A stretch of 64,000 nt of DNA, taken from the IMG/VR virus record IMGVR_UViG_3300011116_000655, positions 13,870 to 77,869 of that record; one strand, given 5' to 3'. Numbering within the stretch: position 1 is the first letter of the stretch; the number at the start of each line of letters is the position of its first letter. Origin of the DNA: a virus. Made by a program: the position numbers and the translations under genes. This document shows, one piece after another, positions 4,234-59,691 of the stretch. The notes beneath the pieces were generated by a model that saw only the letters and a program-made list of their open reading frames with translations, made no database searches and was not told the DNA's origin.

Positions 4234-4241
4234 TAAATAGT
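4234..4241 (-). promoter_or_regulatory. Putative late promoter (ACTATTTA)
   Basis: Exact motif between the groEL stop and the next gene. Confidence 0.6.
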
Positions 4242-4242
4242 G

Positions 4243-5808
4243 TTATTGCTGAACAATGGAATAATTAGTTGTTATTAAAGTTCCTGCCGCTGATGCTGCA
4301 TTTTGTATTGCACACCTTGTAACTTTAACGGGGTCGATAACACCAGCGTCCATCATCATAATAATTTTACGATGTAGGAAATCATAACCAGCATCAAATA
4401 CTTCTGATTTAACCATAGATACAATAATGTCGGGAGATTCACCAGCATTTAGTGCCATTTGTCTAATTGGCTCTTCTGCTGCCCTAAGTACAATCTTGAC
4501 TCCTAAAGCCTGTTCCTCGTTGTCTGTAGTCACTTCTAGACCTTCTGTGGCTCTAATAAGTGCTACGCCACCACCTGGGACTATACCCTCTTGTTGGGCA
4601 CTACGGACGGCTTCTAGGGCATCTTCAATACGATGCTTCTTCTCAATCATTTCGACTTCTGTTGCAGCACCTACACGAATAATGCCAATACCAGAAGCAA
4701 GACGAGTAATACGCTCCTGTAAACGTTCACATTCATACATATTCTCCGTCTGTTGTAGTTCTGCTTTGATGATATCGATTTGTCTATCAACTTCTTCCAT
4801 ACCACCATGACCGCCAACAATTGTAGTTAAAGACTTAGCAATCTCAATTTTCTTGGCTCTACCAAAATCCTTAAGTTTAACGTCAGACATTTTTGTGCCA
4901 TTTTCTGTTGCAATAAAGTTTGCACCTACAGAGATAGCAAGATCTTTCATGATGTTTCTACGCTCTTCACCATAACGAGGAGCTTTAACTGCTGCAACCT
5001 TCATTGTGCCTCTCATAGCATTCATGATAAGCGCAGCAAGGGCTTGACCTTCAATTTCATCTGCAACAATTACAAATGGTTTTCCTTCTCTTGCAATAAG
5101 TTCAAGAACAGGTAGCATATCTTGTACAGAATCAAATTTACGATCTGTTACAAGAATGTAGGGATCTTCATATTTAACTACACCCCTTCTTTCATCATTG
5201 ATAAATGCTGATGCGAGATAGCCCGAATCGAAACGAAAACCCTCAACAATATCAAGAGAAGTATCGACAGAGCGTGCTTCTTCAATAGTAATCGAACCAT
5301 CTTTACCTACCTTGTCTACAGCAGTAGCAATTAATTTGCCAATTGTTCTATCGTTATTAGCAGAGATAGAAGCAACGTGTTCAATATCTTCTTCTGAAGA
5401 AATTGGTTTTGCAATCTGAGCCAAACGTGTGACAACAGATTCTACTGCTTTATCAATACCTCGCTTTAGCTCAATAGGAGATACACCAGCAGTTAGGTAT
5501 CGTTGAGCTTCACGAAGAATAGCTCGCGAAAGAACAACAGATGTAGTAGTACCATCACCAGCAAGTGTGGCTGTTTGTTGTGAGGCTTGTTTGATTACTT
5601 GCGCCCCTAGATTCTCAAATGGGTCAGACAACTCAACAAAATTAGCTACAGTTACACCATCTTTTGTAATGATTGGTGTTTTGCCTTTCTCTTGAAGAAT
5701 TACATTTCTGCCTCTTGGGCCTAATGTTGAAGATACATTATCTGCCAATACATTAGCACCCTTCAATAATGCTTCGGACAAAGTACGTCCATCACAATAC
5801 TGTTTCAT
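4243..5808 (-). CDS. groEL: Chaperonin GroEL
   Basis: TLGPRGRNV, ITKDGVTVA, AGDGTTT, GIVPGGG, GVIDPVKV; lacks the GGM tail. Confidence 0.97.
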   Translation of the reverse strand: MKQYCDGRTLSEALLKGANVLADNVSSTLGPRGRNVILQEKGKTPIITKDGVTVANFVELSDPFENLGAQVIKQASQQTATLAGDGTTTSVVLSRAILREAQRYLTAGVSPIELKRGIDKAVESVVTRLAQIAKPISSEEDIEHVASISANNDRTIGKLIATAVDKVGKDGSITIEEARSVDTSLDIVEGFRFDSGYLASAFINDERRGVVKYEDPYILVTDRKFDSVQDMLPVLELIAREGKPFVIVADEIEGQALAALIMNAMRGTMKVAAVKAPRYGEERRNIMKDLAISVGANFIATENGTKMSDVKLKDFGRAKKIEIAKSLTTIVGGHGGMEEVDRQIDIIKAELQQTENMYECERLQERITRLASGIGIIRVGAATEVEMIEKKHRIEDALEAVRSAQQEGIVPGGGVALIRATEGLEVTTDNEEQALGVKIVLRAAEEPIRQMALNAGESPDIIVSMVKSEVFDAGYDFLHRKIIMMMDAGVIDPVKVTRCAIQNAASAAGTLITTNYSIVQQ

Positions 5809-7082: not shown

Positions 7083-7778
7083 TTATACAATAATGTCAGC
7101 AATACCAAGTTTTACTGCTTCTTCCGCTGAAAGATAGACGTTTACTTTCTTATCAATCATTTTCTTAAGTTGGCGGAATGACATATTGGTTTCTGCTGCA
7201 AGTGCTTTTAGATAAGCATTTTGAATGTATCGAATTTCATCCATTTCATTTTCAAGATTGTGAAGTGGACCAGCGTTACCACCAATTACTGAATGAATCA
7301 TTACACGACAGTTCTTTCCAATTCTACGCTCACCTTTAGTACCAGCAGCAAGAAGAAGAACACCAGCGGACATTACTTTACCAACACCAAATGTAATAAT
7401 GTCACATTTGTTTTTGATAACTCGCATAATGTCATAAAGCGCAAACATATCATCTGCACTACCACCTGGGGTATTGATAATAAACTCAATAGGTTCGTTC
7501 TCTGTTAGAATCTCAGAATTTGGATCATCTGGATTTGCTGGATACTCTGCTTCACAATTTTCGGCAAGATCAAGCATTACACCAACAATCTGAGAAATCT
7601 TGGCTTCCTCTACTTCACCAAACAGACCAATCGTTCTTGATTCATCTTTGGCACCAGCAGGAGGCATAAAAAGCGTCATTGGCATTGTAGGTTTAGCAGT
7701 TTTTTCCTCTGCTTCATCTACCTCTTCATCGTGGTCATGTTCACCTTCGACTTTCTTACGAGATTTATTGAATAGCAT
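7083..7778 (-). CDS. clpP: ClpP-family protease
   Basis: IINTPGGS, GKVMSAGVLLL (Ser), RVMIHS (His), YLSAEEAVKLGIAD. Confidence 0.9.
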   Translation of the reverse strand: MLFNKSRKKVEGEHDHDEEVDEAEEKTAKPTMPMTLFMPPAGAKDESRTIGLFGEVEEAKISQIVGVMLDLAENCEAEYPANPDDPNSEILTENEPIEFIINTPGGSADDMFALYDIMRVIKNKCDIITFGVGKVMSAGVLLLAAGTKGERRIGKNCRVMIHSVIGGNAGPLHNLENEMDEIRYIQNAYLKALAAETNMSFRQLKKMIDKKVNVYLSAEEAVKLGIADIIV

Positions 7779-8257: not shown

Positions 8258-8827
8258 TCAGACTAATCTACGAATAACACGTTTGAGGACTTCATTTATA
8301 ACTTCATCATCTGTGAGGATTTCAATACCTTCTTCAAGTTTTTCATCCTCTTCGGCGGGTTCGGCAGGTTCATCACCCCCTTCATCGCCTCCCTCCATGC
8401 CGAGATCCATTTCCTCTTCTTCGCCTTCGCCACCCATTTCATCAGCTAATCCAAGGTCTTGAAGGGCATCCATTACTGCATCTTTAATAACACTTTTTAA
8501 ATCTTCAACTGAATCAAACTCTACTTCACCTTCGCCTTCCATACCTTCTTCTGGTTCCATGACAGAAGGCTCTTCCATATCCATATCTGCACCATCACCC
8601 ATTTCGCCCATGCCCATGCCCATGCCTTCTGGTTCTTCCATTGCGTCCATACCCATTTCTTGAGGTTCGTCTTTACGGGCATAACTGGCACCGCCATACA
8701 TTTCTTTTAATACTTTTTTACTTTTCTTATTTTCTGTAAGGAAATTTTCTGTTGCATTTTTGTCAATGTTAGCAAGTTTCATCCACTTTGCTACTTGACT
8801 TTCTGATAATAAAGGTTTCTTGCTCAT
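8258..8827 (-). CDS. Acidic Glu/Gly/Met-rich late protein, scaffold/internal-protein-like
   Basis: N-terminal LLSESQVAKWMKLANI, very acidic middle, C-terminal VINEVLKRVIRRL; late motif at 8848-8855. Confidence 0.65.
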   Translation of the reverse strand: MSKKPLLSESQVAKWMKLANIDKNATENFLTENKKSKKVLKEMYGGASYARKDEPQEMGMDAMEEPEGMGMGMGEMGDGADMDMEEPSVMEPEEGMEGEGEVEFDSVEDLKSVIKDAVMDALQDLGLADEMGGEGEEEEMDLGMEGGDEGGDEPAEPAEEDEKLEEGIEILTDDEVINEVLKRVIRRLV

Positions 8828-15405: not shown

Positions 15406-15447
15406 ACCCTCCAAGGACATACTATCCAAGGAGGGTCATAGTGTCAA
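15406..15447 (-). promoter_or_regulatory. Sigma70 promoter within an RBS-sequestering hairpin (uvsE)
   Basis: TTGACA-17 nt-TAGTAT; imperfect stem ACCCTCC..GGA/TCC..GGAGGGT whose 3' arm contains the GGAGG SD. Confidence 0.65.
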
Positions 15448-16232
15448 TGGTTTCTTTTCTTATTTTCTCTCATACCTTTATCAAGTGCAAGCGTTCCGTA
15501 TTGTTGTCCACCTATTCTTGCTCGTAATGCATCCATACCAGCATCTTGAGAAACTGGGCCTAAAGATGCTTGCTGAGAACGACTTGATTGTGTAGAAGCC
15601 ACATTTTGTGGATTTGTTGGTTCTGGAACTTTTATGTTCAATACATTTTCGTATTTTTGAATTTCACTTCTATCTAATGTAGGACCAGAAACTTTTCTCA
15701 TTTCGTGCGCCTCAGAAGAAAATTGTTGTCCTTTTTCTGCTCTTTTTATAGAAAGAGGAAATACTTCTATAGTATACCCTTTATCATATCTTTTAGCATG
15801 GTTGTAGTAAAAGACTATTACTTTTTTTGTTTTCATTTCAGAAATGTATGTTTCTAATCTTTGTATAGCTAGTTGTTTATTTTCATCATTTTTTGCAATT
15901 TTTATTTTGTTGTTGTAGTCATCTAAATCAAACTCATAATCTATTAAAAATTCTCTTAATGGTAAAGGAATTAAGTTTGCTTGTTTTTTTTGAATCATTT
16001 CTCTAAATTTTGGAAAAAGATTTATAATTTGAGCACCTGTTACGGATAACAATTCTTCTTTTTCTCCAAGTTCTGAACCTGCTTCACTTACTTCGACTTC
16101 CGTATCTATAACTGGTTGGTTTCTTGGTGATCCATAAATTGGACCTCTTTCAAAAGGGCTAATTTCATTTAGCAATCCAACAAGTTCTTCTCTAATAACT
16201 TGTCTAAGTTGTGATTCTGTTAATCTTTTCAT
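15444..16232 (-). CDS. Late hypothetical protein with N-terminal LTESQLRQVIREEL tag
   Basis: Tag nearly identical to the N-terminus of 36163..36795; late motif at 16254-16261. Confidence 0.7.
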   Translation of the reverse strand: MKRLTESQLRQVIREELVGLLNEISPFERGPIYGSPRNQPVIDTEVEVSEAGSELGEKEELLSVTGAQIINLFPKFREMIQKKQANLIPLPLREFLIDYEFDLDDYNNKIKIAKNDENKQLAIQRLETYISEMKTKKVIVFYYNHAKRYDKGYTIEVFPLSIKRAEKGQQFSSEAHEMRKVSGPTLDRSEIQKYENVLNIKVPEPTNPQNVASTQSSRSQQASLGPVSQDAGMDALRARIGGQQYGTLALDKGMRENKKRNH

Positions 16233-23887: not shown

Positions 23888-26293
23888 TCAGCCGCACTTG
23901 CTATTTCCACAGTCTGCACAAGTAACGCATCCATCTTGGTAAATCAAGTTAGTTGAACCACAATCTGTACAACTTTTTTGTCCTGTTGCTTTTGTTCCAT
24001 CTGGTACATATTGCTTCAAAACTCTTGCAATAGAACGTGCAAATGAGAACATATCTGAATCTTGTTCTTTCTGTAACTGCTCCACAACATAGTTAATTGG
24101 CGCACCATGACGAAGTGAAAGAGAAAGTAGTCTGGTAAATGCTGAATGATTTGCATTATCAAATACCTTAACAACATCACGAATAGTTAAATCATCTACA
24201 ATTAAATCATAGCGTGATTGTGTCTTAGAAACAGATGTTTTGTATAGAGATCCTTTCTTTGCGTTCTTTGGAAGGTCCACAAGTTTGTTTGCACCACCAA
24301 GGATTTCGTATGGTTTACCATCCATAAGACCAACAAGGATAGTCCACTTCTCACCTTTAATTGAAAGATTGTGGATTTCTGCTTCTAGTGTTTCTGGGCG
24401 TTTTGGCGCATTGTATTGTGGGAATACGTCTTTCTTGGTTTCTGTAATAAGCACACCATCACGGGAACCATCAACATAAACTGTAATACCTTTAAGACCA
24501 AGCTTCCAGCCAAGTCTGTAAAGTTCAGAAACTACATCTGGACTTGTACCTTTTGGTAGATTGATTGTAGAAGAAATAGAATGGTCAATGTGTTTTTGAA
24601 TAACACCTTGAATTTCTACACGACGCTTCCAATCAATCTTATCTGATTCAGTAAAGAACGCAGGAATTTCTTCAGTCTCATACTCTTTCAAATAATCTTG
24701 TACGTTTTGGTGGTAAACCTTGTATTCTGTCCATTTATCTCCCATAACGTCTACAAAGGCAGCAGCTTGATCTTGCTCGTTGTGAGAAAGTTTACGACGA
24801 CGAATGTAGAAATTACGGAATACTGGCTCAAGACCAGAAGAAGTCTGTGACATAATTGAAACAGAGCCAGTAGGAGCATTTGTTAGAATACTAATGTTTC
24901 TACGACCATGAGTTTTAATTGCGTTTTGAATACTTGTTGGAAGTGATTTGATAAACTCATTATCTTTTTCAAGTTCCCAATTAAATACATTAAATGATCC
25001 ACGTTCTTTTGCAAGCCATACTGACTCTGTATAAGCTGATTCTTTGAGAGTACGATAGATTTTATCAATCATTACAAGACCATCAGCAGAATCGTATGGC
25101 ATCTTCAAACAAGCAAGAGCATCTGCAAGACCGTGAGTACCAAGACCTGTTCTACGACCATCTACACAAGCACGAAGAAGATTTAACCAAAGTTCTTTTT
25201 CATCTGGTGTGTCACAAGAAGCAACAATTTTTGTAAGCTTCTCAATTTCAAGCTCTACCAAATCATCTGAAAGTCTCATTGCACGCTTAACAACGCCTTC
25301 AAACTTCTCAAAATGGAAGTAAGCATTGTCTTTGAATGGATTAACAACAAATGACTTTAGATTTACAGAAATAAGACGGCATGAGTCATAAGCAGAAAGT
25401 GGAATTTCTCCACATGGGTTTGTTGTAAGGGTTTTAAACCCATGATCTTTATAGCTTTCTGCTGGCAAGAACTTCTCAATGTTGCCCCACATCAAGAGTC
25501 CTGGTTCTGCCGTTTTTGTCGCAGAATCAACGACACTTTTCCATACCTCTCTGGCTCTAACAGTTTTAGAATAACTAGGATTATCGGAATCAACAGGAAA
25601 TCTAAGAGTAAAATCCTTGTCTTGTTCCACAGCTTCCATGAAATCGTCTGTAATTCTGATTGAGACATTTGCACCTGTAACCTTTGTTAAATCATGCTTC
25701 ATTGTAACAAACTTTTCAACGTCTGGGTGTCTTACATCAATAGAAATCATAAGGGCACCACGACGACCATTCTGACCGATCATTCTACATACATAAGAAT
25801 AAAAGTCAGCAAATGACCAAGCACCAGTTGTAGTACCAGCAGAGTTATTTACTCCCATTCCTTCTGGTCTAAGATTTGAAATGTCAAGACCTACACCACA
25901 ACGACGCTTAAATAAGTTTGCAAGGTGTTTACCAGAGTCAACAATAGAAGAAACATTATCTTCTGGTGAAGCTACAACAACACAATTTGACAATGAAGCT
26001 AGGGTTTCGTTATTACCAATTCCATACATAGGAGAACCCTGTGGAACAATGTATTTGAAATCCTTAATGTCTTCATAAATTGTATCATAACTTAGTGCAG
26101 ATTCACCACCAAACTTTGCCTCAATACGTGCAAACTCAGCAGCAATACGCTTATGCATTTGATCTGGATTATTCTCCAGATACTTACCATTCTTAGTTTT
26201 AAGGGCATATTTTGTAGTAAATACATTTGCAGCAAGTTCATCACCCTTAAAGTATTGTAAACTTTCTGCATTTACTTCTTCTCTGTTATACAT
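23888..26293 (-). CDS. nrdJ: Class II (adenosylcobalamin-dependent) ribonucleotide reductase
   Basis: SLSNC, GRRGALM, GANVS, EPG, TNPCGE, RRTGLG, APTGS..SSGLEP, SISSTINL, GLKGITVY; C-terminal TSCPD-like domain and Zn ribbon; no small subunit gene nearby. Confidence 0.9.
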   Translation of the reverse strand: MYNREEVNAESLQYFKGDELAANVFTTKYALKTKNGKYLENNPDQMHKRIAAEFARIEAKFGGESALSYDTIYEDIKDFKYIVPQGSPMYGIGNNETLASLSNCVVVASPEDNVSSIVDSGKHLANLFKRRCGVGLDISNLRPEGMGVNNSAGTTTGAWSFADFYSYVCRMIGQNGRRGALMISIDVRHPDVEKFVTMKHDLTKVTGANVSIRITDDFMEAVEQDKDFTLRFPVDSDNPSYSKTVRAREVWKSVVDSATKTAEPGLLMWGNIEKFLPAESYKDHGFKTLTTNPCGEIPLSAYDSCRLISVNLKSFVVNPFKDNAYFHFEKFEGVVKRAMRLSDDLVELEIEKLTKIVASCDTPDEKELWLNLLRACVDGRRTGLGTHGLADALACLKMPYDSADGLVMIDKIYRTLKESAYTESVWLAKERGSFNVFNWELEKDNEFIKSLPTSIQNAIKTHGRRNISILTNAPTGSVSIMSQTSSGLEPVFRNFYIRRRKLSHNEQDQAAAFVDVMGDKWTEYKVYHQNVQDYLKEYETEEIPAFFTESDKIDWKRRVEIQGVIQKHIDHSISSTINLPKGTSPDVVSELYRLGWKLGLKGITVYVDGSRDGVLITETKKDVFPQYNAPKRPETLEAEIHNLSIKGEKWTILVGLMDGKPYEILGGANKLVDLPKNAKKGSLYKTSVSKTQSRYDLIVDDLTIRDVVKVFDNANHSAFTRLLSLSLRHGAPINYVVEQLQKEQDSDMFSFARSIARVLKQYVPDGTKATGQKSCTDCGSTNLIYQDGCVTCADCGNSKCG

Positions 26294-27677
26294 TTATTTC
26301 ATCCTTTGTTTTCTTTTTATAGTTCTTGTATTTCTTTTTTAGATTGTCTTCCTGCTCTTTAGAGGAACGTACCATTATGTCCGATGGAGTCTCACCTGTC
26401 GAGGGCAAAACTTTTATTTTTACATTAGATGTATCCATGAAGATTGGAAAGACAAGACCATCTGGTCCATTACGATTTTTAGCTACAAAGATACGTCCAG
26501 AATTAGATGCTTTATCCTCTACAGTTCTTGACACGGAACAAATAAAGTCTGCTACGAAACATTTGTTGAACGCTTCGCTAATACTTTCCATAGTAATAAC
26601 TTCCGCATTTAGACCAGATCGATTCGTTTGTGATGCTGTCCAAACAGGGCAAGTATATTCTTGAGACAATCCTCGTAGTTCTTCATAAATAGTCTCAAGC
26701 TCCTGTCTCTTCTCTTTCTGATTAGAAATAGGTTTCAACAAATCACCATAGTCAACAATAATCATATCTGGCTTAATGCCTTTCACTTTTAATTTTTCAA
26801 GATGAAGTTTAAGTGTATTGGTAGAAGCTGATTTTGTTGGATACTCTTTTACAATTAATTTACCAGGAAGGTTTTGAACAGATTCATAAATTTGTTCTTT
26901 ATAAGAATACAAATCTTTCAACTCAATACCTGTTAGACAACTATCATAACGTGAAGCAACAACAGAATCTGCAAGCTCCAAAGTATAATGCACTACAGTT
27001 TTACCTGCTTTCAAAGCCTCAGTACCAAGATGAACAAGTACCATCGATTTACCAGCACCTGTAGGAGCGATTACAACACCAAGTTCACCAGTACCAAGAC
27101 CACCCTTACAAATACTGTCAATCTCGTTCCAACCCATAGAGATAGGATTGCGAGACTTAATTTGGAATCGCTTCTCAAAGTCTACAAGGTAATCGTAACC
27201 AAAATCAGATGTAGTACCAAGCTTTAGTGCTTCATTGATGGTTTTGGAGATTTCATCAAAAGAAGCATTTTGTAGAAGTTTGACAGACTTCAACATAGCT
27301 TCTTTCAACTTCTGTTTCTTACAAAAGTCAAGTGATGTTTCTTTGATAAATTGTGCGCCATCTGGTTCTGCTTCTGGCATACGAGCAAAATAGTCACGCA
27401 CTTGCTTCTGTACTGTCTCATTTTGATCTTCAAGACCTGTACGAAGAAGTGTGGTCATAATTTCAAATGTAGGATGAATCTTGTATTTATCTTTGTAATT
27501 AAATACAAGAGTCACGAAAGATTGAAGGTATTTTAGCTCAAGAAACTCAATAGCAAAAACCTCACGAATCTGGTCACAAAATGGACGATCCATGAGCATT
27601 AATTGTACTAGACTCTCTTGAAAGCTTTTTCCAAAACGAGAGAAGTCACCCCTCTCGCTGGTAGAGGCTGTTGTCAT
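26286..27677 (-). CDS. Replicative DnaB/gp41-like helicase
   Basis: GELGVVIAPTGAGKS, YTLEL, IIVDYGDLL, WTASQTNR, KNRNG. Confidence 0.93.
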   Translation of the reverse strand: MTTASTSERGDFSRFGKSFQESLVQLMLMDRPFCDQIREVFAIEFLELKYLQSFVTLVFNYKDKYKIHPTFEIMTTLLRTGLEDQNETVQKQVRDYFARMPEAEPDGAQFIKETSLDFCKKQKLKEAMLKSVKLLQNASFDEISKTINEALKLGTTSDFGYDYLVDFEKRFQIKSRNPISMGWNEIDSICKGGLGTGELGVVIAPTGAGKSMVLVHLGTEALKAGKTVVHYTLELADSVVASRYDSCLTGIELKDLYSYKEQIYESVQNLPGKLIVKEYPTKSASTNTLKLHLEKLKVKGIKPDMIIVDYGDLLKPISNQKEKRQELETIYEELRGLSQEYTCPVWTASQTNRSGLNAEVITMESISEAFNKCFVADFICSVSRTVEDKASNSGRIFVAKNRNGPDGLVFPIFMDTSNVKIKVLPSTGETPSDIMVRSSKEQEDNLKKKYKNYKKKTKDEINV

Positions 27678-27712: not shown

Positions 27713-28729
27713 TTACCAAGCTCTGCAAGACCAATAACGAGCTTTTGTTTTTGGTCCTGGGTTATCGCAATTATGTCTTGCTCTAAAAGATTTACGTCTT
27801 CCTGGTATGTTCTTTTTAATCTTCATGTTCTTATCGCCAAAGTTTACTTTTTTAACATTACCAGTTTTTGGATCTCGTACATAAACTTTGGATTTTTTAA
27901 CATCACCTTTCATTGGTTTATTAAGGGTTACTGTGCGACCTTGGTATTTTGCTTCTTGAATTATTGTTCTCTGACTTTCCAATAACTCTTGAAGGCAACC
28001 AGCGCAAACAAGTGTTCCATCGTCTAAATGGGCATCATCGTATTCTGTTGATTCAGAAACTACTTGCGCTCCGCTTTGTTGTAGTTCTTGACCAGTATCT
28101 GTAATAAACTTTGTTAAATCTCCTACTTTTGCTAAAGTAAGAGAATTTTTTAAATGTGTTACAAGTTCAAGTGCGTCTTTAAGTGAAACTAAGTTATTAG
28201 TCATACGTGCATTTGCTAAATTTGCTAAAATCATACTAGACAAAACAATAGTAGCAGATGCACCAGTAAATCTATTAAAACCTTTTGTTAAATCACCACC
28301 ACCTAATTTAGTAAGACCTTTTTGTGCCGCAGACAAAACAGCTTCAGTTGTTTTATAAATTGGTCCTGGTTTTTTTGCCTCTTGAATTTGAGTAAGCAAT
28401 AATTTAGCATTTTGTGCAGCTTCAATTGGATCATCATCTTGTAATACATTTTTCAACAAATAATCTATTGCTGCATCAATTTCTTTTTTAGAAATAAATG
28501 CTTGTAACTGACGGATAACACTTGGGTCACTAATAGACTTTCTTGTGTTATCAGATGGTCCTGGTTTCACAACTTTTTGGTTACTGAGAGCAATAATTTT
28601 TTGGATTGGGGTTTGTTGAGGAGCAACAGCTTGTGGTTGTTGTTGTGGGGCGGCTTGTTGTTCATTTAAATAAGTTCTCCAACCTTCCATTAAAAGTTGT
28701 TGATTTTGAAATGATGAAAATTTAGTCAT
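27713..28729 (-). CDS. Late multidomain protein with CTS-like N-terminus and C-terminal basic Cys-containing (DUF6321-like) domain
   Basis: QLLMEGWRTYLNE; CAGC; IQE/AKYQGRTVTLNKP...KKVNFG...RRKSFRARHNC...ARYWSCRAW; late motif at 28734-28741. Confidence 0.7.
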   Translation of the reverse strand: MTKFSSFQNQQLLMEGWRTYLNEQQAAPQQQPQAVAPQQTPIQKIIALSNQKVVKPGPSDNTRKSISDPSVIRQLQAFISKKEIDAAIDYLLKNVLQDDDPIEAAQNAKLLLTQIQEAKKPGPIYKTTEAVLSAAQKGLTKLGGGDLTKGFNRFTGASATIVLSSMILANLANARMTNNLVSLKDALELVTHLKNSLTLAKVGDLTKFITDTGQELQQSGAQVVSESTEYDDAHLDDGTLVCAGCLQELLESQRTIIQEAKYQGRTVTLNKPMKGDVKKSKVYVRDPKTGNVKKVNFGDKNMKIKKNIPGRRKSFRARHNCDNPGPKTKARYWSCRAW

Positions 28730-28736
28730 AACTTAA

Positions 28737-29609
28737 TTAGTCCTTTTTCTTCTTTTTAGTCCATGAAATTGGCTTAGATGATTGTTTTTTTCTTAATGGA
28801 CCTTTACCAGCAGATTTACATTGTGCTTTTGTTGGTCTACAAGCTGGATACTTGCCACCACTATCTGCGGAGCTTCTACCACATGGACCACCAGTTCTAC
28901 AATTTATCCAACCTTTTCCTTTATTACGAGCAAACCAACCATGAAGTCCTTGTTCTTTTTCTTTAGAGAAGTTTGGTTTGTATGGCTTTTTCTTTTTGGC
29001 TTCATCTAATTCTTCTTCAATTATTTCTATGTCACCAAGGTCTATTTCTTCATTCTTTTTTTTTCTGCCTTGACAATGTGCCCTTTGAGAAAAACCTTTT
29101 GGATTTTTGCAATTGATAGAACGTTTGTACTTTTCAGACCATTCTTCTTCAAGTACCTCTATTTCTTCTAAAACTAGTTGTTGATCTATTTCTTCATCTG
29201 TTGCATTCTCAGAAATACCTTTCCAGATCTTTCCTTGACGGCATTTAACAACAGCACCAGAAGCATAAGCAGAAGGCCAAACATCATATTTACGTTTGGC
29301 AATTCTTGTGCAACGATCACCACTTTTTTTCTTTTTTGCTTCTTGAAGATTTGAAAGAAATTGTTGTATTTTTGGTTTAATGTCAGCAGCAGTAATGCCT
29401 TTTTGTTTAGCACTTGCAACAACATTTTTTATGTCATTTTCTATTGCATCAACTGCTATCTGTATTTCATTATCTTTTTTTTCTGCTGGAGATAAATCTT
29501 CTGGCTTTACTTTAGCTTGTTGATTTGTGTTTGTAGTTTGTTGTACAGAAGCTGTATCTGCTTCTTGCAAAAATTGTTTCCAACTCTCTAAAATTAAATT
29601 ATATTTCAT
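28737..29609 (-). CDS. Late polyprotein-like protein with three basic Cys-containing modules (DUF5872-like)
   Basis: Start MKYNLILESWKQFLQE at 29609; modules DRC..KYDVWPSAYASGAVVKC, WSEKYKRSINC..PKGFSQRAHC, WINC..GGPCG..KYPACRP..C; late motif at 29615-29622. Confidence 0.7.
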   Translation of the reverse strand: MKYNLILESWKQFLQEADTASVQQTTNTNQQAKVKPEDLSPAEKKDNEIQIAVDAIENDIKNVVASAKQKGITAADIKPKIQQFLSNLQEAKKKKSGDRCTRIAKRKYDVWPSAYASGAVVKCRQGKIWKGISENATDEEIDQQLVLEEIEVLEEEWSEKYKRSINCKNPKGFSQRAHCQGRKKKNEEIDLGDIEIIEEELDEAKKKKPYKPNFSKEKEQGLHGWFARNKGKGWINCRTGGPCGRSSADSGGKYPACRPTKAQCKSAGKGPLRKKQSSKPISWTKKKKKD

Positions 29610-29613
29610 ACCT

Positions 29614-30570
29614 CTAAGTAGTATTGTTAGCCACAATTTTCTTAAAACAAGTCATTAAAGATGAAAAATCTACAACACCAAAACCATCTTGCATTGACAT
29701 ACGCCTAAATTCAAGTTGGTTTAACTGTGGTTCAAAGTTCTCAACAAGTTCATCAATCTGTTGTTTTGTTTGATAGGAGATTTGTGGAGAGGAAAGCTGC
29801 ATGATGCGATAGTTATCTCTAATCACCTCAAAAGATGATGCGATACTTTCAAAAGCTTTACCTTCCTTATCTTTACAAAATTCTGTAACATCATTAGGAA
29901 GATAAGACTTCTCTTCAACAAGCATAGGAATTTTCTTAGCTATTGTAGCCATTCCAACACCTTTAACACCTTTAAGATTATCGCTATCATCACCAGCTAT
30001 TGCTCTTGCTAAAGCAAAGTTGTTAGGATGAACACCATACTTTTCAATAATTTTAGATACATTCAGCAGTTCTTCTTGAATAGGACGATAAAGAATTGTT
30101 TTACCATCAATAAGCTGAATAAAATCTTTGTCTGATGACACAATTACCTTTTGCCAACGCTTATAATGTTGATGGTTCACAACATAAGAAATAAGATCAT
30201 CTGCTTCAATGTTTGGATACAGTAGTTGAATCACAGGCATTTGATTAAAATACTCTGCAACTCTTGTTTGTTGCCAAATTCTATTAGCAATCTCTTCGTT
30301 CTCTGTAAGATTACGAACATCACGATTAAGACGAAGAGGGTTTCTACCATCTTTGTAATTTGAATTCATAATTTTACGTTTTTTGGAACCACCTTCACCA
30401 TCCCAACAAACATATATAAGATCTGGGTTTATAGTATTGCATAGCTTCTGCATAATTTTAAGAAAGCCAACAACACCACCTACAGGTTGACCGTTTGGTG
30501 AAAGAGTAGGATTTGTTATGTATGCACGCAAATATTGATTGTTTGCGTCTACCACCATCATTCTTGGCAT
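29614..30570 (-). CDS. 5'-3' exonuclease / RNase H (FEN/PIN family)
   Basis: VVDANN, CWDG, YKDGR, EADD, SSDKDF.QL, GDDSDNLKGVKGVG; start MPRMMVVD at 30570. Confidence 0.92.
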   Translation of the reverse strand: MPRMMVVDANNQYLRAYITNPTLSPNGQPVGGVVGFLKIMQKLCNTINPDLIYVCWDGEGGSKKRKIMNSNYKDGRNPLRLNRDVRNLTENEEIANRIWQQTRVAEYFNQMPVIQLLYPNIEADDLISYVVNHQHYKRWQKVIVSSDKDFIQLIDGKTILYRPIQEELLNVSKIIEKYGVHPNNFALARAIAGDDSDNLKGVKGVGMATIAKKIPMLVEEKSYLPNDVTEFCKDKEGKAFESIASSFEVIRDNYRIMQLSSPQISYQTKQQIDELVENFEPQLNQLEFRRMSMQDGFGVVDFSSLMTCFKKIVANNTT

Positions 30571-30788
30571 TTTAAATCCTCCATTAGAAAATAATGACAT
30601 TGCTCGTCTTCCATAGTCCAAACATAGCACAATTCTGGGTATGCTGTTACAACAACACCCAGAATACTAAATTCAGAGATTAATGATAATTGATTATTTT
30701 TACGATGAATAATAAGTTGTGAAGTATAAGACTTTGCGTACCTATTTATCCATACCAAATCGCCTTCTTGTGGTTGAGTGTTCATCAC
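30558..30788 (-). CDS. Small SH3-like hypothetical protein
   Basis: PQEGDLVWI...GVVV. Confidence 0.55.
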   Translation of the reverse strand: MMNTQPQEGDLVWINRYAKSYTSQLIIHRKNNQLSLISEFSILGVVVTAYPELCYVWTMEDEQCHYFLMEDLKCQE

Positions 30789-35436: not shown

Positions 35437-35805
35437 CTACTTTAGTAATTCTTTAATAACCTCTTTTACAATTTCTTCAAGAAGGTTTTCTTTCATGTGT
35501 TTAAAGTATTGTACTTGTTTTTCTCTTTTTTCTGCACCTTTTCTAGAATCATAACAGCCAAGATTCTTACCACTCTTTTTTGATTTCAAACAATACTTAG
35601 AACCTTGTTTAACAATGTGTTCACCAATAGGAGGAGCAGATTTAGAACGTTCCATAGATGGTTTTTCACTATAAGGGGCACCAGCGGGTTGATTGCCATG
35701 ACCAATAACTCTTTTCTTTTTACGACTGTGCCCTGCCTTCATCTTTCTCTGAAAAGGCTCTGTCTGTTCTAATAAGTCTCTAAGTTGTTGTACTAAAGGG
35801 TCCAT
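35437..35805 (-). CDS. Basic late protein, putative two-module internal-head polyprotein
   Basis: LLE/QTEPFQRKMK...; IGE/HIVKQGSKYCLKSKKSGKNLGCY...; C-terminal LLEEIVKEVIKELLK. Confidence 0.65.
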   Translation of the reverse strand: MDPLVQQLRDLLEQTEPFQRKMKAGHSRKKKRVIGHGNQPAGAPYSEKPSMERSKSAPPIGEHIVKQGSKYCLKSKKSGKNLGCYDSRKGAEKREKQVQYFKHMKENLLEEIVKEVIKELLK

Positions 35806-36162: not shown

Positions 36163-36795
36163 TTATCTCCTATCTTTTGTTGTTATGTCAGCACCATGAA
36201 CCGCTGTAATCAACGCCAAAGTAAGACACATAAGAGCAATAGCTAAACTTAGATTTTGTTTGTCTTGAGCTTTTACTGCTTTATTTAATTCTTGGTTTTT
36301 TTCAATATATAATTCTATATCATTTTTAAATTTTTGACCTTCTGGCGATCTCATAAATTTATCTACTTCACTTGATTTACCACTTGGATCAAGACTGACA
36401 AACCTTTTTGCTTGTTCTATTAAACTGTTATCTATTGTGGTTTTAATGCCTTTATAAATTAATTGTTTATTATCAACATCAAATTTAATATTTGGGCTTA
36501 AGCTTTCAATGTATTTTTTAGATAATACTGGAAGCTGCTCTTTATCTACTTGAGATGCACCAATTGTCCTGGCTACTTGAGCTATCGCTGGACCTCCAGA
36601 TAATGCTTCATCAGATTGGTTTATAGCTGTACCTAATGAAGCTCCACCACCAAATGCAACAGCTAATGGAAAAGCAAATTTAGCAAATAATTGTCCAAGT
36701 CTTCCTTCGTTTAAAAGATCTGGATTATTTTCACTTAATACTTCTAAAAGTTCTTGTCTAACTATAAGTCTTAATTGTGATTCTGTTATAATCAT
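36163..36795 (-). CDS. Late membrane-type protein with N-terminal ITESQLRLIVRQEL tag
   Basis: Tag followed by LLNE/G; hydrophobic segments at both ends; late motif at 36827-36834. Confidence 0.7.
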   Translation of the reverse strand: MIITESQLRLIVRQELLEVLSENNPDLLNEGRLGQLFAKFAFPLAVAFGGGASLGTAINQSDEALSGGPAIAQVARTIGASQVDKEQLPVLSKKYIESLSPNIKFDVDNKQLIYKGIKTTIDNSLIEQAKRFVSLDPSGKSSEVDKFMRSPEGQKFKNDIELYIEKNQELNKAVKAQDKQNLSLAIALMCLTLALITAVHGADITTKDRR

Positions 36796-54490: not shown

Positions 54491-56254
54491 TCAAGCTCCG
54501 CTTTCACCAAGGAGGCCACGAATGATTACCAAGCCGTAAAGGTCTGGTTTAACCATTTTCTTAGCGTAACGGGTCATTACGCCTTTGCGTGGAACAAAGT
54601 CCTCAGTACCAAAGATGGTAGGAGTGACTTGTAGTGGTACGTATGGTGCGTAAACGTAACCAGATTCAAGGAAGCTGGAACCCTTACGACCAACGAGGAT
54701 TACGTTACGGAGGAAGTATGGATCAACGTATACATCAAACTTCTTGGAGATTGAACCAACGTTAACTGCGCCAATTTCACCTTTCTCGTCTTCGTGAGTT
54801 ACTTTAGCTCTGAAGCCAGATGTGAACTCAAGAATGTTTGCGGTTTCTGGACCACATACGATGAAGTTAGCACCGCCACGGAGGGTCTTTCTGTGGATTT
54901 GGGCTGAAACGTCATTGATTGTTTCAATGAGGGTTTCGTACCATGCACTTACAGTACCTGTGAAGTCTGGAGCTTTAGCTGATGCACCAATCTCAACACC
55001 TGTGGTTCTGTTGACGAAAAGACCTGGGGATCTTGACCAGTAGAATGTACCAGCGGTAGCACCTTTGATAAGATCTTCAAGAATTTCTCTGTCAATTTCA
55101 AGACCAATTTGTTCAGAAAGAATTGAGGTAAGCTCAACTTCTGCATCAAGATTGTGGTAAGCATTAAGGTCTTGACCAAGTTCTGGTGTCCATTTTGCTT
55201 TGAGTTTCTTGGTTACAGCGGTGATGCTGATTGAATCGACTTTGATATCGATTTCTGGGATATTTGCATTACCTTCAAGACCCCAAGTTGATGTACCAGC
55301 AATAGCACCAAGAGCGTTGGTTGAACCAGCAGCTACTGATGTACCAAATGGATCAATAATTGGGAAACTAAGTACTGGTGAAGTTCCAGCAGCAGTTACG
55401 TCTGTTGAAACGTTAGCAGCAGTTTTACCAGCAGCACCAGCAAATACAAAGTATACTGCATCTGCTGAGGTTGTGTGGGAACCGACTACTGTTCCGTCAC
55501 CAAGTCTTGTAAGTCTTCTGACAAGAGTTGAGTTGTTAGAACCAGTTAAGTTTGGTGTTGAACCACTTAAAGAAACAGCAACAAAATCTTTTTTGTTAAA
55601 GTTTGTAAGGGAAGCCAAACTTGCTGATACTAGTACTAATGCAGTACCTGTTCCAGATGCACCAGAAAGGAAGTCAGCGTCATAACGTACCCATGAATCA
55701 AGTGTTCCGTCACCAAAGACACCAGAAGCAAGAGCGACGAATGTTGGGCTTGTGTATGAACCTGTTGGTGAACTGTAACCATTATTCATGTTGTAAAAAG
55801 CTTTCTCAGCATTTAAACCAGTTAAGCTTACACCGCCTGTGATTTGTTGACCAAGAACACCACCACCGTAGAGTGAATCATTTGTTCCGTAGCCAAGTCT
55901 TGGGGCACCAGCAGTATCTGAAACCTTGAAATCAAGGAAGAAGATAAGACCAGATGGAAGGCTCATTGGTTGTACGGAGACTAAATCATTGGCGATAAGA
56001 CCAGCAAATACTCTGCGAACGATTGGGAATGCAACTGCTGCGAAACCTTCTACGTCACCAGATGCCATTGTGTTAGACTCACGAAGAAGCTCTTTAGCTT
56101 GATTTTCGAGAAGTCTTGCCATTGTGTGTTTGGTTCTCTCGTTAGAAAGACCTTCAAGAAGACCTGTTTTTTCCCATTTACCTAAGAGGGCTGAGCCTTC
56201 TGCTTGAAGATCTCTTTGTACCATACCCTCTGTCAATTTTTCAATAATAGACAT
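54491..56254 (-). CDS. Major capsid protein (T4 gp23-like)
   Basis: KW...LLEG, LLENQ, P.VRR, VQPM..PSGLIF, KLKAKWTPELGQDL.A.H.LDAE.EL..ILS.QI..EIDREI, YAPYVPL, TRY. Confidence 0.96.
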   Translation of the reverse strand: MSIIEKLTEGMVQRDLQAEGSALLGKWEKTGLLEGLSNERTKHTMARLLENQAKELLRESNTMASGDVEGFAAVAFPIVRRVFAGLIANDLVSVQPMSLPSGLIFFLDFKVSDTAGAPRLGYGTNDSLYGGGVLGQQITGGVSLTGLNAEKAFYNMNNGYSSPTGSYTSPTFVALASGVFGDGTLDSWVRYDADFLSGASGTGTALVLVSASLASLTNFNKKDFVAVSLSGSTPNLTGSNNSTLVRRLTRLGDGTVVGSHTTSADAVYFVFAGAAGKTAANVSTDVTAAGTSPVLSFPIIDPFGTSVAAGSTNALGAIAGTSTWGLEGNANIPEIDIKVDSISITAVTKKLKAKWTPELGQDLNAYHNLDAEVELTSILSEQIGLEIDREILEDLIKGATAGTFYWSRSPGLFVNRTTGVEIGASAKAPDFTGTVSAWYETLIETINDVSAQIHRKTLRGGANFIVCGPETANILEFTSGFRAKVTHEDEKGEIGAVNVGSISKKFDVYVDPYFLRNVILVGRKGSSFLESGYVYAPYVPLQVTPTIFGTEDFVPRKGVMTRYAKKMVKPDLYGLVIIRGLLGESGA

Positions 56255-56272: not shown

Positions 56273-57367
56273 TTATTTATTTTTAATACCAGCTAATCTT
56301 TGCATTCTCTCTATTACTGGAGGGGTTGCATCGTTATTTCTGGTTTGCATGATTATTGATGAAGTTCTATTAATTGCTTCGCTTAGTGATTTTGGAGCAG
56401 TAACTTTGTCATTGCCCGCCACGGTGCTTTGAAGTGTTTGGTAGATTGTTTTTGCTTCATCGGCTGTATTTGCATTGGATAGTGCTTCGACAATCTTATT
56501 TTTTTGTCGCTCATTCAAGGAGTTACTATTCAATACTTTATTTTTGTATAAAAGTTTGGCATTTGAAACTGTTAAAGATTCAAGCCTCTCTTTAAGTGTT
56601 GAAACTGCTGATTCGTACTCTTCAACTCTGTTTGCAAGTGCTTCAGCAATTTCAGAAATTTTAGCAAGTTTACCTTCGACTGAATCTAGTTTTCTTGCTA
56701 ATAATTTATTTTCTTTTGTAAGTTTTTTGTTTTCTTCGCCAACTTCTGCGGCTTTTTCTTCCGATGCAAGTTGGGCTTTTTTTGCAAGTGATACGTCTTT
56801 TGCGTATTCTACTTCAAGTGAATTAGCAGGGTATTCAATGTTACCGTATGGAACGTTTCTTGCATCAACTGTAAGTTTTTCATAAAGGTCAAGAAGTTCG
56901 TCTTTATCAACTTCGTATTCTTCTTGAAGTGCTACTGGTTCTGGACCTGGGGTTGGCCCTAAACTGGTTGGTGTTTTACCACCTATTGGCACTCCAGCTT
57001 CACTAGCCATATCTTCAATGTCAGAAAGATTTAAATCAATTGTTACTTGTTCTTTGTCTTCTGGGCAAGCACATAATTTTTGACCATCTCTAAAAGCTGA
57101 TGGGCTTTGATTTCTTACATTAGCACCACCACCCATAGGTTGATCACCACCCATTCCAGCAGCAGATGTACCAACACCAGATGCTTCCGCAGCAGATGGT
57201 TCAGTAAATCCTTCTTCTTGCTCTAAAAGACTTCTTAAAGCTTCTTTTACATCTGTTGAGTATTTTTCTAAAACTTGAGCCTCTGCATTTTTAAGTGCGG
57301 CTTCTTTAAGTGCAGTTGCATCAATAATTGCTTGTTCTAACAAAGAAGACATTAAATTGTTCTCCAA
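56273..57367 (-). CDS. Prohead core/scaffolding protein
   Basis: Acidic coiled-coil protein immediately upstream of the MCP; NAKLLY.N, C-terminal ERMQRLAGIK; late motif at 57389-57396. Confidence 0.8.
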   Translation of the reverse strand: MENNLMSSLLEQAIIDATALKEAALKNAEAQVLEKYSTDVKEALRSLLEQEEGFTEPSAAEASGVGTSAAGMGGDQPMGGGANVRNQSPSAFRDGQKLCACPEDKEQVTIDLNLSDIEDMASEAGVPIGGKTPTSLGPTPGPEPVALQEEYEVDKDELLDLYEKLTVDARNVPYGNIEYPANSLEVEYAKDVSLAKKAQLASEEKAAEVGEENKKLTKENKLLARKLDSVEGKLAKISEIAEALANRVEEYESAVSTLKERLESLTVSNAKLLYKNKVLNSNSLNERQKNKIVEALSNANTADEAKTIYQTLQSTVAGNDKVTAPKSLSEAINRTSSIIMQTRNNDATPPVIERMQRLAGIKNK

Positions 57368-57422: not shown

Positions 57423-57647
57423 TTATTCAACACTAAAAAAACCTTTAACTTTTGTGATTAATTGATTGTTTGAGTTATAAAATTCTACAACACCAGGATC
57501 TACACATTCATAAAATTGAATGTTTATTATTTTATTATCATTTATATAAAGTGTAGGTTCTTGATAATTAAACCAATTAGTTATTTTTACTAAACTTATA
57601 TCATTATTACTTTCTAATAATTGAATTACACAATCTCTAATTGTCAT
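57423..57647 (-). CDS. Small hypothetical protein coupled to the paralog trio
   Basis: TAATG overlap with 57647..58693. Confidence 0.6.
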   Translation of the reverse strand: MTIRDCVIQLLESNNDISLVKITNWFNYQEPTLYINDNKIINIQFYECVDPGVVEFYNSNNQLITKVKGFFSVE

Positions 57648-58693
57648 TATGGAGCCGCCTTTAAAGCAATAGCTTCTGCTGCTGTTGTTTCGTCGGAAGA
57701 TAAAATGTGGTATAAGTCTGTAGAACCAGATCTAATTGTTTTTAATCCAGCTTGTGCTACACCAAAACCATAAGTTTCTCTACTGTACCCAACTGTATAC
57801 TGACCTAATGAAGAGTTATTTCTTGTTATGTACATCTTTTCAAAGAAATAATTATCATTAACATCAATGTTCTCAAATAGTTGTGGACCACCGTGAGAAT
57901 AATGTCTTCTTACACCATTTGTAAAAGTTGATGTTCCTGGTATAAAATAACCACAATGAGCTTGAGAAATTGATAAAGCACCTTGATAAAGATAAAAATT
58001 TGATTGTCTTAAGTGTGTATTCCCAAGGCCAGTACCTATAGTTGCACCTAATGTTGAAATACCATACAATCTATTATCTGATTCTGCCGATGCTATGTAT
58101 TGATGCTTGGTATCTTCGTATGATGCAATTGGTTGAAAAATAGCACCAATATGACACCAGTATTGCAATGTATTGTTTAAAAACATTTGTAAGAATACAT
58201 TTTCTTGTGACACAAATGGTCTTACTACTGCTGTTGTAATATTTATTGTGTTTGGAGCTAAATACCAATAGCCAGAAAAACTACCACTTGTCATTGGTGT
58301 AGTGCTTGACCAACTTGAATAAGCACCAGGATTTAACACCATTCCAACGTGACCATAATTAAGTGTAAAAGAAGTATCTGGAGCTAACATAGTAGGACCA
58401 GAAGCGGGCGCACTTGAAGAACCAGCAAAAATAAATGTTGGATTTTTTGTAAGCGATGCTGTACTTGGAACTGCTGTATTGTAAACTGCTTCTGTTATGT
58501 TTGTAGCACTTCTAAATCTATTCCAAGTCCAAGTGTGCGAAGAGGGTATTGTAGTTCCTCTATAGTCTGTTGTTGAAATTAAAGACCCATAAATAGCATC
58601 TAAAAATTTATCAATAGTTGCAGCAGTTGGTGATGCATCTGGTAATCTGTAATAAGTTAAATCTGGTAATGGTGTTATCTCATAATTTGTCAT
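57647..58693 (-). CDS. Virion protein paralog 3 of 3
   Basis: PLPDLTYYRLPD, DYRGTTIPSSHTWTW, VSQE, LKAAP. Confidence 0.75.
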   Translation of the reverse strand: MTNYEITPLPDLTYYRLPDASPTAATIDKFLDAIYGSLISTTDYRGTTIPSSHTWTWNRFRSATNITEAVYNTAVPSTASLTKNPTFIFAGSSSAPASGPTMLAPDTSFTLNYGHVGMVLNPGAYSSWSSTTPMTSGSFSGYWYLAPNTINITTAVVRPFVSQENVFLQMFLNNTLQYWCHIGAIFQPIASYEDTKHQYIASAESDNRLYGISTLGATIGTGLGNTHLRQSNFYLYQGALSISQAHCGYFIPGTSTFTNGVRRHYSHGGPQLFENIDVNDNYFFEKMYITRNNSSLGQYTVGYSRETYGFGVAQAGLKTIRSGSTDLYHILSSDETTAAEAIALKAAP

Positions 58694-59691
58694 GGTGCTG
58701 CCTTCAATGCAAGAGTTGAATAAACGTTATTCTGTGCTTCGTCTGCTGTGATTATGTGAAACTTATCTACACCTTCGTCACGTATGACACCCCTCATGTT
58801 GTTTATCATGATACCAGTTGCAGGATAAATTTCTCTATAATGTCCAAGTGCTGCATTACCACCACCATGACCAGATCTCATAACTCTATTTTTATCAAAC
58901 ACATATTTACCAGTTAAATCTTGAGAGTAAAATGAAGAGTTAACTAAATGTGTACTAGCTCTTGCAACAAGCATAACTGTGGATGTTGTTGGCAGGAATG
59001 CGTTACTACGATTGTATAAAAATCCTGTATTTACTGCTGATAAAAATGTTGTCGCTAATGCAGTTGTTCCAGTTGTTGTTAGACCATAAATTCTATCATC
59101 TGGTTCTGCTGTTCTTGTACCACCAGCACTACTTGAATAACTATTGTGTGGTTCATAAATAGCACCAGCAATTGAAACATATTTTGAAGATGTAGTAGCT
59201 CTTAAAACAGTTACAACAACTTCTTGAGAAACATAATTTCTAATTATTGTACTGGTTCCTATCGTTACCGCCGATGGGGCTACTCTTGAGTAACCTAAAA
59301 AAGAACCTGCTGTCATTGGCAAATTATTTGTCCAATCTGTATAAGTTGTACCATTTATGTTAACACCAACGTATAAACTTTGTGATGCATAAGTATCAAT
59401 TGTACCAGTTTTTGGTGTAGCAGAACCAGTAAATCCAGCATAAATAATTGTTGGATTTTGTGTCATTGTAGTGCCAGTTGGAACAGCGGTATTATAAATT
59501 GAAGAAATACTACCAGATGTTGATCCAGTTGCCCAAGTCCATAAATGCGTTGAAGGAATTGCTGTTCCCCTATAGTCAACCGTACTTGTCAAAGAGGTTA
59601 ATAAATTTGTCAACATTTGTTGTATGTTAGAACCAGAAAATGTAATATCTGGCATTCTATAAAAAGTTAATTCTGGTAAAGGTAAACTCAT
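58690..59691 (-). CDS. Virion protein paralog 2 of 3
   Basis: PLPELTFYRMPD, DYRGTAIPSTHLWTW, VSQE, LKAAP. Confidence 0.75.
   Translation of the reverse strand: MSLPLPELTFYRMPDITFSGSNIQQMLTNLLTSLTSTVDYRGTAIPSTHLWTWATGSTSGSISSIYNTAVPTGTTMTQNPTIIYAGFTGSATPKTGTIDTYASQSLYVGVNINGTTYTDWTNNLPMTAGSFLGYSRVAPSAVTIGTSTIIRNYVSQEVVVTVLRATTSSKYVSIAGAIYEPHNSYSSSAGGTRTAEPDDRIYGLTTTGTTALATTFLSAVNTGFLYNRSNAFLPTTSTVMLVARASTHLVNSSFYSQDLTGKYVFDKNRVMRSGHGGGNAALGHYREIYPATGIMINNMRGVIRDEGVDKFHIITADEAQNNVYSTLALKAAP

Follow-up and report, generated by a model that had tools for sequence, protein, structure and literature searches.

The locus and its two genes

The window analysed here is a stretch of 64,000 nucleotides of the IMG/VR virus record IMGVR_UViG_3300011116_000655, a 77.9-kb contig with a completeness estimate of 43%, and its minus strand carries every gene. 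Between the genes of a DnaB-like helicase and a flap-endonuclease-type exonuclease lie two adjacent minus-strand open reading frames (ORFs), ORF2 and ORF1, as an earlier reading of this DNA from its letters alone (the sequence-only reading) had described them; the possibility that they are not real genes was rejected in view of thousands of homologues and conserved synteny. ORF2 begins MKYNLILESWKQFLQE and ORF1 begins ...QQLLMEGWRTYLNE. Since homologues begin MKYNLILE, the ATG at 29609 rather than an upstream TTG was taken as the start of ORF2. We consider it slightly better than an even proposition that the two gene products represent a polyprotein variant of the T4-type capsid-targeted internal proteins in a distant T4-like marine myophage. 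The parts of the locus are given below, with lengths in amino acids (aa), net charges where noted, and a slash marking each junction that follows a Glu.

28737..29609, minus strand: ORF2, 290 aa; tag, helical spacer, module A, acidic linker, module B, acidic linker, module C
29562..29609, minus strand: ORF2 residues 1-16; N-terminal tag T1, MKYNLILE/SWKQFLQE/, predicted helix 3-19
29340..29561, minus strand: ORF2 residues 17-90; disordered stretch and helical hairpin, with LQE at its end
29208..29339, minus strand: module A, ORF2 residues 91-134; charge +10, two Cys; AKKKKSGDRC..WPSAYASGAVVKC..ISE, bounded by LQE/ and ISE/
29145..29207, minus strand: acidic linker, ORF2 residues 135-155; charge -9, ending LEE/IEVLEE/
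29052..29144, minus strand: module B core, ORF2 residues 156-186; two Cys; EWSEKYKRSINC..RAHCQGRKKK
29001..29051, minus strand: acidic linker, ORF2 residues 187-203; ending IIE/E/ELDE/
28740..29000, minus strand: module C, ORF2 residues 204-290; charge +22, four Cys; AKKKKPYK..GLHGWF..GWINC..PCG..YPACRP..C, Lys-rich tail
27713..28729, minus strand: ORF1, 338 aa; tag, Q/P-rich and helical region, middle domain with hydrophobic helix, CxxC leader, module E
28661..28729, minus strand: ORF1 residues 1-23; variant of tag T1, ..QQLLME/GWRTYLNE/
27986..28378, minus strand: ORF1 residues 118-248, after IQE/; helical domain with hydrophobic helix 157-177
27716..27952, minus strand: module E, ORF1 residues 260-338; charge +20, two Cys; AKYQGRTVTLNKP..RRKSFRARHNC..YWSC; PHROG 7595
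26286-27677, minus strand: DnaB-like helicase, named by reading the translation
29614-30630, minus strand: flap-endonuclease-type 5'-3' exonuclease, named by reading the translation

The junctions proposed by the sequence-only reading, LQE/AKKKKSGDRC, LEE/EWSEKYKRSINC, LDE/AKKKKPYK and IQE/AKYQGRTV, were all found in the translations. Cutting at all [LI]xE sites would give fragments with charges of +10 (module A), +22 (module C) and +20 (module E), together with acidic linker pieces of -3 to -6. Contrary to what had been supposed, a neutralisation of the modules by the acidic linkers is not borne out, as the uncut proteins keep net charges of +19 and +17. The [LI]xE motif was observed nine times in ORF2 compared with 2.7 expected (z 4.2) and six times in ORF1 compared with 2.0 expected (z 3.2), and these z values are the top two among the window ORFs of at least 200 aa, with the capsid protein also at 3.2; a scaffold-like protein reached 2.1 and a 122-aa ORF at 35437-35805 reached 3.4. 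The latter, on the minus strand, encodes a basic protein with [LI]xE sites at both ends.

Neither ORF1 nor ORF2 gave a significant match in Pfam, NCBIfam or PDB sequence searches. Likewise, no match to DUF5872 or DUF6321 was obtained for the two proteins at E <= 1; among 82 larger homologues these families match five and one, respectively, and ESM Atlas neighbours carry both. ORF1 did not match the HVA1 / Hva1_TUDOR profile in Pfam or NCBIfam, a name that occurs only as the depositor's annotation of gp67 of phage CRP-901. Residues 118-248 of ORF1 are homologous to the middle of three fused relatives (P0005, P0006 and P0010).

In AlphaFold2 models the two proteins are beads on a string without a global fold, with a predicted local distance difference test (pLDDT) of 76 and a predicted template modelling score (pTM) of 0.36 for ORF2, modelled from a 101-row alignment, and a pLDDT of 69 and a pTM of 0.33 for ORF1. 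In agreement with the sequence-only reading, no single compact fold across the linkers was predicted. In the ORF2 model the tag helix (residues 3-19) is accompanied by a helical hairpin; modules A and B are small and helical, the acidic linkers form helices as well, and module C contains a small beta-hairpin. The ORF1 model has a tag helix (residues 7-24), a disordered Q/P stretch, helical regions including the hydrophobic helix 157-177, and module E as a confident small four-strand domain with short helices. Foldseek searches against the PDB returned no match at E <= 0.001 for either model, and wide and second-look VIA-align searches returned generic helical matches only (Z <= 5.7). Weak but recurring Foldseek matches to Cren7-dsDNA (double-stranded DNA) complexes (E 1.3-4.5) had pointed to a likeness of module E; it was dropped, as these complexes were not among the 50 VIA-align matches listed.

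The modules in other viruses

An exhaustive phmmer search with ORF2 yielded 3050 cluster representatives at 50% identity, ranging from 80 to 1427 aa, in which single modules were matched at varying positions. A search with module E yielded at least 7995 clusters at 90% identity, and Syn9 gp114-type proteins, which also carry these modules, are present in 489 phage records, mostly of cyanomyoviruses. All of these proteins are annotated as hypothetical, and no description of the modules was found in the literature on Syn9 gp114, DUF5872, DUF6321 and DUF5661. In the podovirus (roseophage) CRP-901, modules A, C and E each have a small ORF of their own; the three ORFs lie side by side and lack leaders and linkers. 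The varying positions in the phmmer matches and the separate genes of CRP-901 support the view that the modules are independent units. The CRP-901 stretch L010:978-1498 is unannotated in its record and encodes module A (54 aa), module C (about 91 aa) and a 47-aa basic protein.

Stand-alone module E starts at a Met located at most three residues from the conserved Y.G in viruses without a T4-type head, as in the MA(K/T/I)Y(Q/K/R)G starts found in the siphovirus Kolga, in CRP-901, HTVC026P and HTVC202P, and in an archaeal (Nitrosopumilaceae) spindle-shaped virus. In CRP-2 and CRP-235, too, module E has its own gene, which lacks a leader and an [LI]xE site. In myophages with a T4-type head module E lies behind a leader, as in C48C1 (MKKFKQYIDE...LTE/AEYQG), HTVC008M (LEE/AEFQG) and Flavobacterium phage immuto (LDE/GEYRG). 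Because AKYQG matches the natural MAKYQG N-terminus, a cut at IQE/ in ORF1 would give exactly the protein that is encoded directly elsewhere. As judged from these comparisons, the modules are self-sufficient small proteins that form separate genes in other marine viruses.

Two further observations concern module-bearing homologues. In gp55 of Roseobacter phage CRP-6 (L059:635-1324), module E is fused to a Peptidase_S78_2 (XkdF-like) domain (7.2e-18), a putative prohead protease. In homologues P0011 and P0020, a candidate intein-like insert of about 330-340 aa, which by eye begins with C... and ends ...HN-like before S, splits module A between SAYA and SGAVVKC.

Position of the (L/I)xE sites

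The sequence-only reading had placed an (L/I)xE site before the modules, and such sites do precede them at fixed offsets across hundreds of diverged homologues. With the three residues of the site numbered P3, P2 and P1, and with counts taken over distinct sequence contexts, P3 before module B was L or I in 49 of 55 and P1 was E in 53 of 55, while P2 took ten different residues. Similar values were obtained for module D (P3 = L/I in 9/10, P1 = E in 9/10) and module E (10/11 and 11/11), and before module A P3 was L or I in 62 of the 84 contexts with a definable boundary. As a background value, L or I stands two residues ahead of 24% of all Glu in these proteins. Among close homologues of module E, 112 of 119 have [LI]xE/A(K/E)Y.G. 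These counts are not independent events because the sequences are related; the free variation of P2, with P3 and P1 fixed, argues for selection on the motif.

The N-terminal tag and the hypervariable slot

The locus was compared in 28 IMG/VR contigs with the gene order exonuclease-[slot]-dnaB-RNR (RNR, ribonucleotide reductase), and the tag was scored in 22 syntenic slots. The order is kept in all 28 relatives, with a slot of 1.2 to 4.6 kb and flanking proteins of 59-95% identity (DnaB, RNR and RecA-like protein) or 52-89% identity (exonuclease). The architectures of the first slot gene include T-A-B-C, T-A-C and T-A-D-B-C, where T stands for the tag, and are followed by a separate gene ending in module E. 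The strict tag [LI][LIV]E[SN]W[KR]x[FY][LI]xE was found on the module A-C gene in 18 of the 22 slots; most other slot genes, including those for module E, start with visible tag variants, and a few slot ORFs, for example one for a PurA-like enzyme, have no tag. Where the polyprotein is split in two genes (loci L036 and L038), each piece has its own tag, and a slot gene of L036 consists of the tag, an ART-PolyVal domain (6.7e-13), LDE/ and module C.

The tag is likewise found at the start of four unrelated proteins, encoded at 72-77 kb, in G001, a complete 184-kb relative that shares 47-91% protein identity with the window across the syntenic region (86-91% for DnaB, RNR and the RecA-like protein). 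A second tag, T2 (xTExQLRxxIxEEL), heads proteins adjoining the G001 protease gene and stands directly before modules B and E in other homologues. In the window, T2 starts are present at 36163-36795 and 15444-16232, both on the minus strand (MIITE/SQLRLIVRQELLE/ and MKRLTE/SQLRQVIRE/ELVGLLNE/, respectively).

The N-terminal motif that the sequence-only reading had aligned with the T4 capsid-targeting sequence is common to unrelated cargo proteins and resembles the N-termini of T4 gp21 (MNEPQLLIE/TWGQ) and gp23 (ELLNKWKPLLE/GEG). A short N-terminal (L/I)xE leader shared by unrelated cargo, a characteristic of T4-type internal proteins, was found here as well. With about 16 aa, including W and F/Y, the tag is longer than in the T4 internal proteins, and it is closer to the N-termini of gp21 and gp23 than to the leader of T4 internal protein III, MKTYQEFIAE. 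In T4, the 10 N-terminal residues of internal protein III are enough to target the capsid, and gp21 cuts after Glu in an (L/I)xE context (PMC9026906, PMC5694885).

ORF1 and ORF2 could alternatively be prohead-core or assembly factors of the gp67/gp68 kind, which are degraded and leave the head and are not retained or ejected as cargo. T4 core proteins are indeed cut at many LxE sites (PMC5694885), and the T2-tagged proteins of G001 adjoin the protease. However, a hypervariable locus and effector-type domains in relatives fit poorly to an essential assembly role, and basic modules would bind DNA rather than exit the head, which makes this explanation highly improbable in our view. A complex prediction for the ORF2 tag (residues 1-40) with the scaffold-like protein (56273-57367) gave a score of 0.00, which is evidence neither way.

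Cargo domains and virion data

Pfam searches with the 82 larger homologues identified ART-PolyVal (8), GNAT (8), NUDIX (6), AAA_33 (5), phage lysozyme (4), SLT (4), ParB_N (2), CHAP (1) and ArdC-N (1) domains. Such domains are hallmarks of the 'polyvalent proteins' of phages and conjugative elements, for which packaging and injection have been predicted (Iyer et al., 2017; PMC5512222); the text of that study makes no mention of marine phages, cyanophages, Synechococcus, Pelagibacter or 'cysteine-rich'. Like the polyvalent proteins, the proteins described here are highly mosaic, and their homologues share ART-PolyVal, GNAT, ParB, ArdC-N and lysozyme domains (PMC5512222). In contrast, ORF1 and ORF2 have no enzymatic domain, and Pfam domains are absent from both, whereas polyvalent proteins are defined by at least two effector or enzymatic domains per polypeptide. 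The mode of processing would differ as well, since embedded metallopeptidase domains (MPTase) are proposed to process the polyvalent proteins, and a prohead protease acting at linker sites is proposed here.

A homologue in cyanophage S-SM1, SSM1_115, matches ORF2 at 2e-10 in BLASTP and belongs to gene cluster T4-GC119 (with Syn9 gp114; PHROG 727). In this protein VLE/, IQE/, FQE/ and LNE/ stand before modules C, A and D and an E-like module, respectively. T4-GC119 is listed with proteomic data (Sullivan et al., 2010; PMC3037559), and in purified S-SM1 virions 13 peptide counts were recorded for SSM1_115; the gene is absent in S-PM2, and its size across cyanophages ranges from 276 to 2985 nt (PMC3037559 Table S8). 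Although it shares modules and xxE junctions with the proteins studied here, T4-GC119 differs in its location between gp16 and gp17 in a structural cluster, in its N-terminus and in its low identity to ORF2 (27% over 150 aa). T4-GC969, a virion protein in the main text of the same study, was rejected as the homologue, being a 19-kb ORF. The neighbour of SSM1_115, SSM1_114 (T4-GC403; L071:1582-2118), is an abundant virion protein (60 peptide counts; Table S8), Ala/Thr/Gly-rich and unrelated to the modules.

The S-SM1 data show virion association of a homologue, that is, detection and not processing, and are in this respect also compatible with polyvalent proteins that are packaged and reach the host essentially whole, having lost no more than the leader and with the inter-module [LI]xE sites unused. 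Packaging without processing is known for some polyvalent proteins, the N4 virion RNA polymerase among them (PMC5512222). Delivery in intact form would, however, leave the strict [LI]xE position before every module unexplained, and the same modules are separate genes elsewhere; we consider it improbable.

Genomic setting and expression

The window encodes a T4-type major capsid protein (54491-56254, minus strand; Pfam Gp23 match at 9.5e-72), a tail sheath, GroEL, DNA polymerase and ClpP, as well as a class II-like RNR, the DnaB-like helicase, the flap-endonuclease-type exonuclease, dCMP deaminase and a RecA-like protein, the last five named by reading their translations. Among cultured phages, Flavobacterium phage immuto is the closest by its capsid protein (49% identity). 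Peptidase_S77, the gp21-type protease family, is present in immuto and is matched at 8e-29 in G001 (G001:154097-154690), and judging from these two relatives the lineage has a gp21-type prohead protease.

Several other features of the window were recorded in addition. The capsid protein, of 587 aa, contains about 200 residues inserted with respect to the Gp23 profile, and its N-terminal part (LLGKWEKTGLLE/, ...ELLRE/SNT) parallels the T4 gp23 propeptide. The ClpP-family protease (1.3e-32) is encoded at 7083-7778 and GroEL at 4243-5808, both on the minus strand. At 8258-8827 (minus strand), with an exact late motif upstream, lies the gene for an extremely acidic Met/Gly/Glu-rich protein of 189 aa, similar in character to T4 prohead core proteins of the gp67/gp68 type, with N-terminal LSE/ and LTE/ sites and a C-terminal amphipathic helix. 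Three tandem paralogous genes for proteins of 330-348 aa are located at 57647-60680 (minus strand) between fibre-like genes and the gene of the scaffold-like protein, with the common N-termini MSLPLP(E/D)LTFYR(L/M)PD and C-terminal LKAAP.

The coding strand carries 15 copies of the late-type motif of this phage, ACTATTTA, and the opposite strand a single one. Most of the copies, which on the minus strand are found at 4241, 7077, 8855, 16261, 36834, 46480, 48811, 51692, 53912, 54421, 57396 and other positions, lie directly upstream of structural genes, and the motif is probably the late promoter element of this phage, a variant of T4 TATAAATA. The T4 late promoter TATAAATA itself was discarded as a candidate, as it is not enriched in the window and has no copy near ORF1 or ORF2. 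In front of the two genes are the following copies:

29615..29622, minus strand: ACTACTTA, one mismatch to ACTATTTA, overlapping the exonuclease stop codon
28734..28741, minus strand: ACTAATTA, one mismatch to ACTATTTA, overlapping the ORF2 stop codon

The statement of the sequence-only reading that each gene has its own late motif is not fully supported, as both copies are only near-consensus. The exact motif is found at the same place in 3 of 19 relatives and a near copy in most others, so that late expression of ORF1 and ORF2 is possible.

Proposed route and its weighing

Sequence comparisons and one virion proteome suggest, rather than prove, that proteins of this type are loaded into the capsid and cut. 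From the sequences we infer the following route for ORF2 and ORF1. The conserved amphipathic N-terminal tag, [LI][LIV]E[SNG]W[KR]x[FY][LI]xE, would, like the capsid targeting sequence of T4, guide each polypeptide into the prohead during its assembly; a gp21-type prohead protease would then cut after (L/I)xE, removing the tag and the acidic linkers and freeing modules A (about 44 aa), B (about 31-43 aa), C (87 aa) and E (79 aa), together with a 131-aa middle fragment of ORF1. The freed basic modules would remain with the packaged DNA and enter the host together with it. Nucleic-acid binding or charge neutralisation would be the likeliest role of the modules, which may also include countering host defences. 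Of the sequence-only reading, which had regarded both proteins as prohead-loaded, cleaved precursors, the modules, the tag and the site positions are supported, and the protease of the lineage and the presence of SSM1_115 in virions agree with it; the neutralising function of the spacers is not supported.

A number of observations weigh against processing in the prohead. Cleavage and packaging of ORF1 and ORF2 are themselves predictions, and no prohead protease gene was found in this contig, which is 43% complete. The residue following the site before module B is K or E, whereas the T4 sites inspected have A, G or S, and deviant junctions occur in some myophages (MME/SEYQG in Melnitz; VAE, QME and FQE in Syn9). 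The modules occur also in viruses without a T4-type head, so that their activity would not need processing. The Syn9 homologue gp114 was annotated yet undetected in Syn9 virions (PMC3037559 Table S8). Moreover, the AlphaFold2 helices run through several of the [LI]xE sites, which could be helical module boundaries inherited by descent. Finally, the genes are part of a tightly packed replication operon, with gaps of 4 and 7 nt in front of ORF2 and ORF1, respectively, and with one-mismatch late motifs that overlap upstream stop codons.

ORF1 and ORF2 could instead be nucleic-acid-binding proteins of several domains that stay in the cytoplasm, are not packaged and are expressed along with the replication genes of the exonuclease-dnaB-RNR operon, an explanation that we regard as unlikely. 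The acidic amphipathic linkers and the N-terminal helix would then serve folding, oligomerisation or auto-inhibition, and [LI]xE would be a by-product of Leu/Ile/Glu-rich helices, carried along with the module boundaries during shuffling; the stand-alone modules of podoviruses, located among early or DNA-metabolism genes, the lack of an exact late motif, the narrow gaps in the operon, the helices predicted through the junctions and the undetected Syn9 gp114 would be in line with such a role. Against it stand P3 and P1 being fixed with P2 free, and a tag that is regained by split genes and also heads unrelated proteins. The peptidoglycan hydrolase, ART-PolyVal and ArdC-N domains of homologues are typical of injected proteins, SSM1_115 was found in virions, and a location away from the head genes is shared by T4 Alt.

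Relation to known systems and significance

Among the known systems, the capsid-loaded polyproteins proposed here are close to the T4 internal proteins IPI, IPII, IPIII and Alt in their short (L/I)xE leader, their basic mature parts and their non-conserved, hypervariable locus, and also in the presence of a gp23-type capsid and, here in relatives, a gp21-type protease. Internal-protein genes are poorly conserved among T4-type phages (PMC9026906). The tagged ART-PolyVal gene of L036 would be an analogue of T4 Alt, with an ADP-ribosyltransferase among the tagged cargo of relatives. Unlike the T4 internal proteins, to which no sequence similarity of ORF1 or ORF2 was found, the two proteins string together several unrelated small modules in a single precursor, along with acidic spacers and internal sites. 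Targeting propeptides and multiple cuts after Glu by a gp21-related protease are also features of the processed inner-body and ejection proteins of phiKZ and SPN3US, but there the motif is S/A/G-x-E, the propeptides are long and the cargo is large, in contrast to the small basic modules described here.

The modules are very abundant, and it is conceivable, if somewhat short of an even chance, that cargo loading in marine T4-like phages, most cyanomyoviruses among them, follows a general grammar that is new to the literature, in which interchangeable tags and (L/I)xE-delimited polyproteins serve to pack, cut and inject basic modules and enzymes (ADP-ribosyltransferase, GNAT, NUDIX, lysozymes and ArdC-N). 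If the rule of tag and (L/I)xE site is true, the proteins that marine T4-like phages bring into the cell would be predictable from sequence, the hypervariable locus would be explained as an arms-race cassette, and the T4 capsid-targeting principle would extend to polyprotein cargo.

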